Source: Naegleria gruberi (taxonomy: Eukaryota). From it: a DNA stretch of 3,253 bases. The translations under genes were made by a program, and so were the position numbers. The stretch lies in NCBI GenBank assembly GCA_000004985.1, contig GG739230.1, one strand, 5' to 3'. The notes beneath the pieces are model-generated. The model saw nothing but the letters and a program-made list of their open reading frames with translations. It had not been told where the DNA came from and searched no databases. Of the stretch, positions 6-3,215 are shown one piece after another (the first letter of the stretch is position 1; each line of letters opens with the position of its first letter).

Positions 6-3000
6 ATGGTTCTTGAATCTGTATTATCTGAAGATAACAAGGTCTATTCAGACGCAAAGTCATACTGTCAACTGTTGTTGACTTGTGCCATTGCTTGTGA
101 AATTTCGTACATGCCTGATCCATTGTACACATTAAACAAGGAGTATTCCCAATTTGAGCATGGTATCAAGAAACTATGTAGTAGTATTACTAATGATATG
201 GACGCAAAGGCAACACTTGAAACAAGATATGTTGTGGCTGATTGTTCTGATGAAAATCGTAAAAGAATTGTTGTAGCAATTAGAGGTTCCTACTCCAAGT
301 CTGATATTTTGACAGATGTAAAGTTGATCCCTGCCATGAATTACTATGGATATGGCGTTTTACATAGTGGCTTCTTGGAAAGAGCCAAATTCATTCCACT
401 TGATTACTTTTTAGAAAAGATTAACGAAGGTTATCAAGTTGTTATTACTGGACACAGCATGGGTGGAGCAGTTGGGGCCATCCTTGCAACGCGATTGATG
501 CAAGCTACTGAAGCAAAGGCCATCAAGAAACCACCAATTCAATTCATTGGTTTTGGAGTTCCCTTGCTGGCTGATGTTAAGTTCAAAGAAAGAATTCTAA
601 AAGATGAACAGTCGAACTATTTCCATTTTTATATCAACGAAAAAGATTGTGTTCCAAGATCTATTAGTATTGTTAGTGAAATTATCAGTCTTTCTGCTGA
701 ATCAGATCTGATTGACCAAGTGTCAAACTTTCTAAAAACTGTTGTGTCGGCAATCTCCAGTATTACAGGAAGGGTTCATAGAGCAGAAATAATTAATTCT
801 GGTATATCTGTTTTCCAGTGGTTTTCTAAAGTAATTGCCAAGGTAATTCACAAATATGCACCACAGTTTTCTCCTTTTGGTAATCACATTCACATTTCCT
901 ATTCTAACAATAAGCAAATAGTTACTGAACATCAAGAGGAAATTTACGATTTAAGCGACAAGTTGGCAGAGATGTTCAGTAGAGAGAAACTGGAAATGAT
1001 TCAACACCACAAAATGACCAATTACTTTCATGAGGTGTTGAAGATTTGTGACTGTTTTGAATTCAAAAAAGATTGCTTTCTCAAAGGTTATTTCAATAAG
1101 AAAGCAGAAAAAATGCAAGATTTGCATGTTCCAGAAAATTGGTCCTTCGTTCCTCTTAGATGGGTTAAGAAGCAAGATGAAAATGCAGATGCCTTTGAAG
1201 GAAAGGAGTGCTACTCTGTTCGTCTGATTGTAAATGAAGCTACCGTTGATGTAAACTTGACACTAATTTCAAAGAAATTTGTGAATTACATTACAAAGGT
1301 TGAGATTATCAATCCTATTTGTCAGCAGGTGAGTGTTCGTGATGAGATGAATGGTGTTACTTATTGCCTAAGCGGAATCGTGAAAGACTTTTGGAAACAT
1401 AATACTTTGCATGTCAAATACCTACAAGTTAAGTTTACAACCCATTTCAACTCTGTTATTTGGGATCTTCCTGTTAGCCATGTAACTCCAGAAGTTGGAC
1501 AAAGTGTAAAGGAGGAGAAAATTTCCAAGTTACCAGTTGACCTCTTGTATATGTATGCTTTGAGTTTTATTTTCGCTACCAGCAAAGTTGAAGATGAATC
1601 GATAAGAGCGAAAAGAAGCAATTTACTCAGATTACTCGGAGATCTTGATGAACTCAATGAAGGGAGTACAATTCCAAAATCCAATATTGACAGTCAAGAG
1701 TTGAATATGAAACTATTAAGAATGTTCTTTGAGGGAACAAACGAGCAAGTTGGAGATTATGGTAAATTGTTCCATCTTAACTTTTCATTTTCCACTGAAA
1801 CAGCTAAATTGAGTGAAGAATCGTTGACTTTTAGAGATTTAGTTGATAAGAAATTTTTAACAGTTCTCCACCATAATTCAGTTCAATGTTCCTTAATTAA
1901 GGAAATGTTTTCTGAAAAGATTGGAATGGGAGCCAGTGCAGCAGGCCTTGGTATTAGCGCTGGTGTTTGTTCTGGTTTACTTTTCGTCCCAGGCATAAAC
2001 CTCTTTGCAATTGGTGCTCTGATAGCAACAGGAGTGGTGAGCTTGGCAAGTTTTGCAGCATTTATGGCCAATTATGTTAGGAAGAATAGAGATGTATTAG
2101 ATTATGAGCAAAATCTTAAAACATTCATGGACAGCTTTTATATAGTCTATTCACACAGTATACCTACTTTGTATCACTTTGAAAAATTGATTTTTGATTG
2201 GACTCGCACCAATTTATTGAAGTATGATGATAATGCTTACATTCTTGACCACTGGTCAGAAGTTTTCGGAAAGGGGTCTACCATTGGTTGGGTCAGTGTC
2301 TCCGAAAGGAAGAAAGTATTGAGAGTGTTGAAATCTGCGTGTATTAACTATCAAATCAGACAAGAATTGATGAAAAACTTCTACGTTGGAGTTGTTGGAA
2401 TGAAGAAATGTGGAAAATCAACATTTGTCGAAAAGTTCCTTCATAGAAATGCTAACGCCTCAAGTATAATAGCTACAACTGAAATTCAAGCATACCCACT
2501 AACAAGTAACTCATCCAATTTTGCTGTTTGGGACTTCCCACACTATGAAAGTCAGGATCATCTCCACAAAGTTCAATTTATTACTTCTCGTTTTTTATTG
2601 GACTATATTGTTGTTGTATACGATGCCCTTTCCAAATGTGATAAAGAAGAATGCAAAGAACATATCAATGTTATCAAACAAAGTAATGATCACAGATTCA
2701 TTGTTTTAATGAACAAGGCAGATGCGTTATATAAGCCAAACATGAATATGACAAAAGACCATTTTGATGACACAAGAAGGGAATGTTCCCTCAAACTTGG
2801 TGTAGATATTTCAAGAGTAATTTTGACCTCAGTTGACCCAGCTATAAATAATATCCACCAATTGAAACCTTGGGGTGTAAACATGATGTCAGAAATAAGA
2901 GATGTAATTTGGGAAGATTTAAAGACAACAGCAAAACGAACAGTTGCAGAGGTTGAACAAGAATGGAATAGTTTGAAGAAGTATGATGCCCTTAAAGTTA

Positions 3001-3215
3001 GCATTGAATTCAGAAGAAAGGGAAAGAATTCCTCCTTTTGCTTCTCTTGGGATAAATTAAAGAATTTGCAATTCAGAGAACTTGTAGAAGAGCTGAAGAA
3101 TGAATTTGATTATGACAATATCAAAATAACCACTAAGAATTCATTAGAAGAGATTTCAGATATGCAACAGTTACTAGAACATGAGGATCATGAATTCATT
3201 GTAGAAAAACAATAA
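6..3215 (+). CDS. Large multidomain protein (1069 aa): N-terminal class 3 lipase (alpha/beta hydrolase), central glycine-zipper transmembrane hairpin, C-terminal IRG/IIGP-like P-loop GTPase with helical tail
   Basis: A 3210-nt uninterrupted ORF from the ATG at 6-8 to the TAA at 3213-3215, followed by a second in-frame TAA. Recognisable catalytic motifs of two enzyme families occur in-frame (GHSMGG, DCVPR; GMKKCGKST, NKAD). Every other ORF in the window is under 110 aa and nested inside it. Only 5 nt lie upstream, so the true start could be further 5' of the window, although the N-terminus aligns sensibly with the start of Lipase_3 domains. Confidence 0.92.
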   Translation: MVLESVLSEDNKVYSDAKSYCQLLLTCAIACEISYMPDPLYTLNKEYSQFEHGIKKLCSSITNDMDAKATLETRYVVADCSDENRKRIVVAIRGSYSKSDILTDVKLIPAMNYYGYGVLHSGFLERAKFIPLDYFLEKINEGYQVVITGHSMGGAVGAILATRLMQATEAKAIKKPPIQFIGFGVPLLADVKFKERILKDEQSNYFHFYINEKDCVPRSISIVSEIISLSAESDLIDQVSNFLKTVVSAISSITGRVHRAEIINSGISVFQWFSKVIAKVIHKYAPQFSPFGNHIHISYSNNKQIVTEHQEEIYDLSDKLAEMFSREKLEMIQHHKMTNYFHEVLKICDCFEFKKDCFLKGYFNKKAEKMQDLHVPENWSFVPLRWVKKQDENADAFEGKECYSVRLIVNEATVDVNLTLISKKFVNYITKVEIINPICQQVSVRDEMNGVTYCLSGIVKDFWKHNTLHVKYLQVKFTTHFNSVIWDLPVSHVTPEVGQSVKEEKISKLPVDLLYMYALSFIFATSKVEDESIRAKRSNLLRLLGDLDELNEGSTIPKSNIDSQELNMKLLRMFFEGTNEQVGDYGKLFHLNFSFSTETAKLSEESLTFRDLVDKKFLTVLHHNSVQCSLIKEMFSEKIGMGASAAGLGISAGVCSGLLFVPGINLFAIGALIATGVVSLASFAAFMANYVRKNRDVLDYEQNLKTFMDSFYIVYSHSIPTLYHFEKLIFDWTRTNLLKYDDNAYILDHWSEVFGKGSTIGWVSVSERKKVLRVLKSACINYQIRQELMKNFYVGVVGMKKCGKSTFVEKFLHRNANASSIIATTEIQAYPLTSNSSNFAVWDFPHYESQDHLHKVQFITSRFLLDYIVVVYDALSKCDKEECKEHINVIKQSNDHRFIVLMNKADALYKPNMNMTKDHFDDTRRECSLKLGVDISRVILTSVDPAINNIHQLKPWGVNMMSEIRDVIWEDLKTTAKRTVAEVEQEWNSLKKYDALKVSIEFRRKGKNSSFCFSWDKLKNLQFRELVEELKNEFDYDNIKITTKNSLEEISDMQQLLEHEDHEFIVEKQ
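48..905 (+). other. Lipase class 3 (Lipase_3-like alpha/beta hydrolase) domain, aa ~15-300, probable triad Ser151/Asp214/His(294 or 296)
   Basis: CQLLLTCAIACEISY matches the N-terminal helix typical of this family. RIVVAIRGSYS (nt 264-296) matches the conserved 'VVAFRGT' strand. VVITGHSMGGAVGAILA has the nucleophile elbow GHSMG at nt 450-464 (Ser codon agc at 456-458). FYINEKDCVPRS has the Asp-x-VPR motif (Asp codon gat at 645-647), characteristic of Rhizomucor-type and DAD1/PLA1-type lipases. The His assignment is tentative. Confidence 0.85.
906..1922 (+). other. Central region of unknown function (aa ~301-639), soluble, mixed charge, Cys-containing (ICDCFEFKKDCF)
   Basis: I recognise no diagnostic catalytic motif here. 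There are no long hydrophobic stretches. A Lys-rich patch lies at aa 352-390 (KKDCFLKGYFNKKAEK...RWVKKQ). It could be a lipid/membrane-binding or regulatory linker domain. Confidence 0.3.
1923..2078 (+). other. Predicted transmembrane helical hairpin with glycine-zipper (aa 640-691)
   Basis: GMGASAAGLGISAGVCSGLLF-VPG-INLFAIGALIATGVVSLASFAAFMANYV is about 50 consecutive apolar/small residues. It has a G649xxxG653xxxG657 glycine zipper and a central Pro-Gly turn. It is flanked by the charged residues E638/K639 upstream and RKNRD downstream. This is locally the most GC-rich part of the gene, because of the GCN/GGN codons. Confidence 0.7.
2367..2885 (+). other. P-loop GTPase domain, IRG/IIGP-like (G1 2397-2420 GMKKCGKS; putative switch-I Thr824/825; G3-position WDFPH 2529-2543; G4 NKAD 2712-2723)
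   Basis: Walker A GxxxxGKS/T is preceded by the hydrophobic strand FYVGVV. NKxD, the guanine-specificity motif, is preceded by the hydrophobic strand RFIVLM. G1 to G3 is ~45 aa and G3 to G4 is ~60 aa, matching Ras-superfamily geometry. The W-D-x-P context of G3 and the GKS P-loop resemble immunity-related GTPases. The G3 Gly is replaced by His. Confidence 0.8.
2886..3212 (+). other. C-terminal charged, predicted alpha-helical/coiled-coil tail (aa 961-1069)
   Basis: It has heptad-like charged stretches (EIRDVIWEDLKTTAKRTVAEVEQEWNSLKKYDALK; LQFRELVEELKNEFDYD) and an acidic end (EHEDHEFIVEKQ). It is analogous to the helical C-terminal domains of IRG/dynamin-like GTPases. Confidence 0.45.

Follow-up and report, generated by a model that had tools for sequence, protein, structure and literature searches.

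A predicted helical-hairpin membrane anchor between the lipase and GTPase domains of a Naegleria gruberi protein

Introduction

A 3,253-nucleotide stretch of Naegleria gruberi DNA (contig GG739230.1 of assembly GCA_000004985.1; the window in what follows) encodes a protein in which a lipase and a GTPase are separated by a long apolar segment rich in glycine and alanine. We propose that this segment, residues 640-691, anchors the protein in a membrane as a helical hairpin whose two ends are cytosolic (N-in/C-in), so that both enzymes would be kept together on the cytosolic side of that membrane. We put the probability of this reading at about 0.7. The sole long open reading frame (ORF) of the window extends over 6..3215 on the plus strand, and its product of 1069 amino acids (aa) is a 100% match to the N. 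gruberi “predicted protein” P0001; the host is a heterolobosean amoeba. The segment had been singled out in a first-pass annotation, made by a model from the letters of the window. The peptide quoted there is correct, the translation of 1923-2078 (+) being exactly GMGASAAGLGISAGVCSGLLFVPGINLFAIGALIATGVVSLASFAAFMANYV, residues 640-691. Its placement between two enzymatic domains is likewise borne out by Pfam, which assigns Lipase_3 to aa 89-220 and an MMR_HSR1/Roc GTPase to aa 794-906.

The hairpin and its immediate flanks are arranged in the window as follows.

1830..1922 (+): entry helix into the hairpin, aa 609-639, predicted with confidence by AlphaFold2 (AF2) to about aa 636 and terminating ...SEK-I
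1926..1988 (+): predicted hairpin arm 1, aa 641-661, MGASAAGLGISAGVCSGLLFV
1989..2000 (+): turn P662-G-I-N665, with an AF2 helix break at 660-665
2001..2078 (+): predicted hairpin arm 2, aa 666-691, LFAIGALIATGVVSLASFAAFMANYV, running on into the exit helix
2079..2135 (+): basic flank R692-K-N-R-D and exit helix to aa 710, including Y701

The apolar block

The apolar block is far beyond chance expectation. Residues 639-691 form a run of 53 aa without a single D, E, K, R or H, in a protein in which these residues make up 28% of the whole, and the second-longest uncharged run of the real protein is 16 aa. When the protein was shuffled 5000 times, the longest uncharged run averaged 18.6 residues and reached 46 at most, and the analytic expectation for the observed run is about 9e-6. 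The composition of the block is equally distinct, with G/A/S at 48% against 16% elsewhere in the protein, and Gly alone at 17% against 3%. All of the top hydropathy windows of the protein fall within the block, with mean Kyte-Doolittle values of 1.7-2.1. The two apolar halves split by V-P-G, as described in the first-pass annotation, are present and measure 21-23 aa (641-661) and 26-28 aa (664-691). The second of these surpasses every other segment of the protein in hydrophobicity; its Hessa values, summed without positional weighting, are about -0.1 to +0.3 kcal/mol (about -0.1 for 666-686), and a score near 0 predicts membrane insertion of this arm. Both flanks are basic in Naegleria, with ...SEK before the block and RKNRD after it.

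The block corresponds to no curated family. Scans of the hairpin region against Pfam and NCBIfam returned no match, and for Pfam the interval aa 600-731 stayed empty even at E<=10. Six hairpins from the family described below, scanned singly against Pfam, gave only DUF3040 at E=0.7-8, and a phmmer search of the hairpin against the Protein Data Bank (PDB) returned no hit below E=0.68.

The hairpin across the family

Besides the query itself, a word-indexed search with the full-length protein retrieved only a second N. gruberi entry (P0002) and the Willaertia magna orthologue P0003, with 58% identity. An exhaustive profile search, for which residues 301-1069 of Naegleria and Willaertia served as the query, returned 108 cluster representatives, of which 61 scored below 1e-10. 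A second homologue search with the family alignment as query added only metagenomic fragments without taxonomy. Among the 32 long members, Lipase_3 is found at the N terminus of 30 and MMR_HSR1 in 25. The domain order, from lipase through middle region and hairpin to GTPase, is accordingly conserved in the family.

The apolar Gly/Ala-rich block occupies the same profile columns in most members. A block was counted when it spanned 40-59 aa with a mean hydropathy of at least 1.2, and 41 of the 65 representatives with enough upstream sequence possess one (median 47 aa), located 110-165 aa before the P-loop. Its sequence is poorly conserved across the family; what is kept is the composition (A 16%, G 16%, L 13%, V 11%, I 9%, S 7%) and the layout. 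The basic boundaries belong to this layout, 31/39 members having a K or R directly before it and 29/41 directly after it, and the 12-aa flanks hold on average 2.6 K+R before and 2.0 after the block, compared with a background of 1.5. The central turn reads [FI][VI]PG[ILV]N in the closest clade and AGPGL in the Hydra-like clade. Willaertia retains the block despite a deletion of 4 aa in arm 1, and the core G657-LLFVPGINL-666 is invariant between the two amoebae. Arm 1 is variable in length among the relatives (13-23 aa), and is 13-16 aa long in the closest clade. A minority of the family has no such long block: in P0017 and P0024 there is just a shorter apolar stretch around a central Pro, and in P0021, P0027, P0029 and P0038 no apolar element is present. 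Judged from these alignments, the anchor appears to be common in the family, but not required for the family fold.

Structure prediction

Two AF2 models were prepared, one of the full-length protein using a 73-sequence family alignment, and one of residues 596-1069 using a curated alignment. The full-length model is confident overall, with a mean predicted local distance difference test (pLDDT) of 81.9 and a predicted template modelling score of 0.79. Residues 637-685 are its only long internal stretch of low confidence (pLDDT 30-48), and this stretch is located between two confident helices, 609-636 and 686-710. In the second model, a helix at 648-659 is followed by a break at 660-665 (LFVPGI) and by helices at 666-674 and 680-710, with the confidence of the apolar part again about 40. 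A buried soluble core, an outcome that the first-pass annotation had set against its own reading, was rejected because AF2 leaves the segment unpacked in both models while being confident elsewhere. In these models, two long helices carry the segment at their tip, in the manner of an appendage. None of the Foldseek matches of the lipase and GTPase domains has an equivalent hairpin.

A disordered, low-complexity spacer rich in Gly, Ala and Ser, with no relation to a membrane, would also yield pLDDT values of 30-48, and could share both the small-residue content of 48% and the low sequence conservation and variable length seen in the family. Disordered linkers, however, are polar or charged, whereas this segment has no charge in 53 aa, a remainder rich in L/V/I/F and the top hydropathy peak of the protein. 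Moreover, its small residues show helical periodicity, and the conserved basic boundaries and central turn indicate a structured element. A flexible linker was thus rejected, the segment being too hydrophobic and too helically periodic, and we regard it as extremely improbable.

The same models bear on the idea of a latent hairpin, which would be shielded by the soluble domains and inserted only after a GTP-dependent change, in the manner of colicin pore domains or the Bcl-2 family. The segment is positioned directly upstream of the GTPase, between long helices able to act as a lever, some family members are of a soluble type without the hairpin, and the Ala/Gly-rich composition may resemble that of colicin-type hairpins. 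Yet the segment packs against no domain in either AF2 model, although the rest is predicted with confidence. An uncharged run of 53 aa with basic boundaries is typical of constitutive anchors, and the PDB searches show no similarity to colicin or Bcl-2 in sequence or fold. A latent hairpin is in our judgment improbable.

The proposed anchor

The constitutive anchor proposed here would be arranged around the two long helices seen in the models. The polypeptide would run inward over about 609-661, enter or cross an organelle membrane or the surface of a lipid droplet, reverse at P662-G663 and run outward over about 664-710, so that the hairpin would form the tip of the helical pair. Since no other apolar segment is found in the 640 N-terminal residues, and since the C-terminal side holds a nucleotide-binding domain, the two parts would both be cytosolic, and the lipase and the GTPase would be held side by side on that face. 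The first-pass annotation had likewise placed the two enzymes on the same side of the membrane, and the two-armed block with its basic flanks makes this the most plausible reading. The richness in Gly, Ala and Ser would allow tight mutual packing of the antiparallel arms.

How deeply the hairpin would enter the membrane may differ between members. The Naegleria arms, at 21 and 28 aa, are long enough for bilayer crossing. In the closest clade, which has the same turn, arm 1 would be too short for the bilayer at 13-16 aa, and monotopic or asymmetric insertion is favoured for this reason. By analogy, given the attached lipase, a location at lipid droplets or at the surface of the endoplasmic reticulum (ER) would be attractive.

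Glycine spacing and the packing of the arms

The first-pass annotation had read the segment as a glycine zipper. One strict GxxxGxxxG (G649/G653/G657) and two GxxxG are indeed present, all of them within arm 1. The transmembrane glycine zipper of Kim-2005 is defined in PMC4470416 as (G,A,S)xxxGxxxG or GxxxGxxx(G,S,T) in an apolar helix, and arm 1 has two such matches (A645/G649/G653 and G649/G653/G657). The presence of the motif therefore stands, but it shows no excess and no conservation. Composition-matched shuffles of the segment contain comparable counts (p=0.39 for GxxxG, p=0.15 for GxxxGxxxG and p=0.16 for the Kim-2005 definitions). The Willaertia orthologue has no zipper motif at all, as G653 is replaced by Ser and 4 residues of arm 1 are deleted. 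Across the family, a Kim-2005 motif is found in 16 of 41 hairpins, compared with 15.2 +/- 2.7 in shuffles. On the shuffle statistics and the orthologue comparison a conserved glycine zipper was rejected, and the “zipper” appears to follow from the composition of the segment and not from conservation of a motif. As the case illustrates, finding GxxxGxxxG in an apolar stretch rich in Gly does not amount to evidence for a glycine zipper.

A different spacing is found when the 41 family hairpins, which share ancestry, are pooled and compared with within-segment shuffles. Glycine pairs at i+4 are not enriched (46 observed against 51.4 expected, z=-0.9), and strict zipper triplets number 10 against 8.8 expected. 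Glycine pairs at i+7, in contrast, number 70 against 48.2 expected (z=3.7), a value that 0/1000 shuffles reach. For G/A/S taken together, the spacings i+3 (z=2.6), i+4 (z=2.4) and i+8 (z=2.1) are raised. In the best a/d/e heptad register of the Naegleria segment, small residues fill 78% of these positions in arm 1 and 58% in arm 2, compared with 42% and 25% at the other positions, and in arm 2 Ala, Gly and Ser form a stripe at a/d/e.

According to PMC7495484, small residues at heptad positions a and d/e are the signature of GAS-Left, the commonest packing of antiparallel transmembrane (TM) pairs, and small-xxx-small is the GAS-Right code. Given the i+7 spacing and this code, the conserved signal would fit antiparallel packing of the two arms within one hairpin, and not a homo-oligomer face. 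The Walters and DeGrado survey, as relayed in that article, describes a pattern matched by the family in Gly at i+7, G/A/S at i+3/i+4 and a/d/e stripes; GAS-Left is nevertheless a packing code and not a protein family, and the AF2 confidence is too low to show the packing geometry here.

These results also weigh against zipper-driven homo-oligomeric assembly. The first-pass annotation had suggested that the segment could drive oligomerisation or membrane perturbation. On this reading, the GxxxGxxxG faces would pack the hairpins into a channel-like or membrane-perturbing homo-oligomer, comparable with VacA, MscL and bacterial glycine-zipper toxins. The matches in arm 1 and the Gly content of 17% speak for it, and many large GTPases function as membrane-bound oligomers. 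However, the motif is as frequent in shuffles, is lost in the closest orthologue and is at chance level in the family, whose glycines favour i+7 over i+4. It is also confined to arm 1, the weakly hydrophobic and most length-variable arm. Among the Pfam families, none of the glycine-zipper or C19orf12 type is matched at E<=10. The analogy with VacA and MscL is unsupported, because the motif is not conserved, not enriched and without a match in a curated family, and we consider an oligomerising zipper very unlikely.

Several points weigh against the anchor proposed here. Arm 1 (641-661) is only marginally hydrophobic, with summed Hessa values of +1.7 to +3.2 kcal/mol, again without positional weighting, which is itself a weakness for both arms. 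Such marginal values are often seen where one arm of a hairpin acts as the helper. The helix-turn-helix geometry is weakly predicted, as the pLDDT of the hairpin is 30-48. About one third of the family is without the long block and some members are without any apolar element; the family can therefore do without the anchor, both in its fold and in its core function. The pooled shuffle statistics, including the z of 3.7 for Gly i+7, overstate independence because the hairpins share ancestry, and in the Naegleria segment alone, G-x6-G is found 3 times against 1.2 expected, which is not significant (p=0.09).

Comparison with known hairpin systems

A close parallel is offered by the class I (ER-to-lipid-droplet, ERTOLD) monotopic hairpins. 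In these, a kink, often at a central proline, separates two hydrophobic helices, positive charges lie on either flank, both termini are cytosolic, and the attached proteins are often lipid-metabolising enzymes (PMC12687448). The Naegleria hairpin has a predicted kinked helix pair with a central proline and positive flanks on both sides. With oleosin, caveolin-like proteins, UBXD8/AUP1, GPAT4 and ANKRD22, it thus shares a turn between the arms (here P662-G663) and basic flanks, and there is the attached lipase. It differs from them in having no sequence homology, in being longer (52 aa, which could span a bilayer) and far richer in Gly/Ala/Ser, and in its position in the middle of a protein of 1069 aa rather than near a terminus.

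Atlastin/Sey1-RHD3 and mitofusin/Fzo1 likewise tether a GTPase to organelle membranes, on their cytosolic side, by two close hydrophobic helices with both ends cytosolic, a topology that we infer for the Naegleria protein. Their dynamin-superfamily GTPase, however, is N-terminal to the hairpin, whereas in Naegleria a generic TRAFAC GTPase is C-terminal and a lipase N-terminal. No atlastin or mitofusin is found among the top 50 Foldseek matches, which are led by Nog1, EngB, IRG and EF-Tu cores. Membership of the atlastin/mitofusin class was rejected for the wrong domain order and GTPase type.

Transmembrane glycine zippers, such as those of C19orf12, VacA, MscL and the Cdz/TelE toxins, share Gly-rich apolar helices with the Naegleria protein, but in the latter the motif is neither enriched nor conserved, and the enriched spacing is i+7 instead of i+4. 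C19orf12 likewise has two Gly-rich helices around a Pro/Gly turn, and its authors favour a helix-helix interaction within the pair (PMC4470416). By sequence, the Naegleria element belongs to no known hairpin family, although it would work like known hairpin anchors.

The lipase and GTPase domains

The other principal features of the window are as follows.

6..3215 (+): whole ORF, stop codon included, identical to P0001
270..665 (+): Lipase_3 domain, aa 89-220, from Pfam, PDB sequence matches and Foldseek
906..1829 (+): middle region, aa 301-608, with helical segments and an all-beta domain, from family conservation and AF2
2385..2723 (+): P-loop GTPase core, aa 794-906, from Pfam, motifs and Foldseek

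The lipase assignment is secure, with Lipase_3 (PF01764) scoring 61.3 bits against a gathering cut-off of 22 (E=1e-16). The nucleophile elbow is present as G149-H-S151-M-G153 (GxSxG), and D214 and H296, from conserved D-x-V-P and H-x-x-Y motifs, are putative partners in the triad. The best PDB sequence matches are PAD4 and EDS1, with Rhizomucor lipases also found, and Foldseek matches the N-terminal domain to lipases as well as to EDS1 and PAD4.

The GTPase is matched by MMR_HSR1 (PF01926) at 30.9 bits against a cut-off of 21.9 (E=3e-7), and also by Roc; Dynamin_N matches the P-loop only (aa 794-826, E=0.005), below its cut-off. G1 is G798-MKKCGKS (GxxxxGK[ST]) and G4 is N903-K-A-D (NKxD). The canonical DxxG of G3 is replaced by D843-F-P-H846 (window 2532-2543), with His in place of Gly. 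DFPH is the family consensus at this site, D-x-P-G being kept only in a clade of Hydra, Symsagittifera and Salpingoeca-like members. Without the switch-II glycine, hydrolysis or switching would probably follow an atypical mechanism. With the GTPase module (window about 2380-2830), Foldseek finds the TRAFAC cores Nog1, EngB and EF-Tu, and the IRGs Irgb6, Irgb10, Irga6 and GM4951 recur.

The similarity to EDS1/PAD4 and to the IRGs is at the domain level only (E about 1e-7 to 1e-8). The Naegleria protein has no EP domain and no IIGP match in Pfam, neither of the two families has a central hairpin, and the GxSxG serine is retained here, unlike in PAD4 and SAG101.

Three residues outside the hairpin, Y701, E726 and R785 (window 2106-2108, 2181-2183 and 2358-2360), are invariant or nearly so family-wide, hairpin-less members included. 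Y701, in the exit helix downstream of the block, is invariant across the family. These residues may couple the helical stalk to the GTPase.

The middle region (aa 301-608) gave no Pfam or NCBIfam match in the scans, but is nonetheless conserved within the family. An all-beta domain within it, at about aa 400-490 (window 1206-1475), is predicted by AF2 with confidence and has no Pfam family. The same holds for a small alpha/beta domain at the C terminus, about aa 995-1069 (window 2988-3212).

Gene models and the antisense frame

Two of the gene models deserve comment. P0002, the second N. gruberi entry, is 635 aa long and 100% identical to the protein described here, but skips aa 307-746 (window 924-2243), the hairpin included. 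It is probably a gene-model artefact, in which an intron has been predicted over a continuous ORF, although it may be a hairpin-less isoform. The Willaertia orthologue is without about 30 residues corresponding to aa ~737-766 (window 2214-2303), FDWTRTNLLKYDDNAYILDHWSEVFGKGSTIG. A W...F..G block within this interval is conserved in other family members, and the gap is likely to be a mis-called intron in the gene model.

An antisense ORF of 62 aa at 1883-2071 (-) overlaps the hairpin codons, where the local GC content is 0.39 compared with about 0.35. Most likely the frame arises incidentally from the GC-richer run of Gly/Ala codons, and it was not taken as a gene because of its overlap with these codons of a conserved sense ORF.

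Distribution and significance

The family is patchily distributed over Heterolobosea (Discoba), Rhizaria, choanoflagellates, cnidarians, acoels and rotifers (relatives P0004-P0109). Its named members are from Hydra vulgaris, Symsagittifera roscoffensis, Didymodactylos carnosus (a rotifer), Paulinella micropora, P. chromatophora and Salpingoeca rosetta, and all are annotated as “uncharacterized”. Literature searches, including reviews of conflict systems, found no description of the family, and PADLOC returned no match for three family members.

A broader reading would take these proteins as an unrecognised, ancient eukaryotic class of membrane-resident, nucleotide-switched lipases. The hairpin would then not just be a passive tether. 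Inserted as a monotopic wedge, it would seek out the monolayer of lipid droplets, or membranes that are curved or damaged, and bring the active site of the lipase to the bilayer. Lipolysis would be gated by GTP-dependent assembly of the atypical DxPH GTPase. Such a protein would be a cell-autonomous device for membrane remodelling or defence, IRG/GBP-like in function, with a lipolytic effector of its own. We hold this broader reading to be unlikely.

Taken alone, the hairpin is an ordinary kind of element, and the context in which it is found, an undescribed lipase-hairpin-GTPase family, is of more interest. It marks an uncharacterised family that would couple a class-3 lipase, catalytically plausible from its motifs, to an atypical GTPase on a membrane surface. 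If the anchor proposed here is real, the enzyme is predicted to act at the cytosolic leaflet of organelles or lipid droplets.

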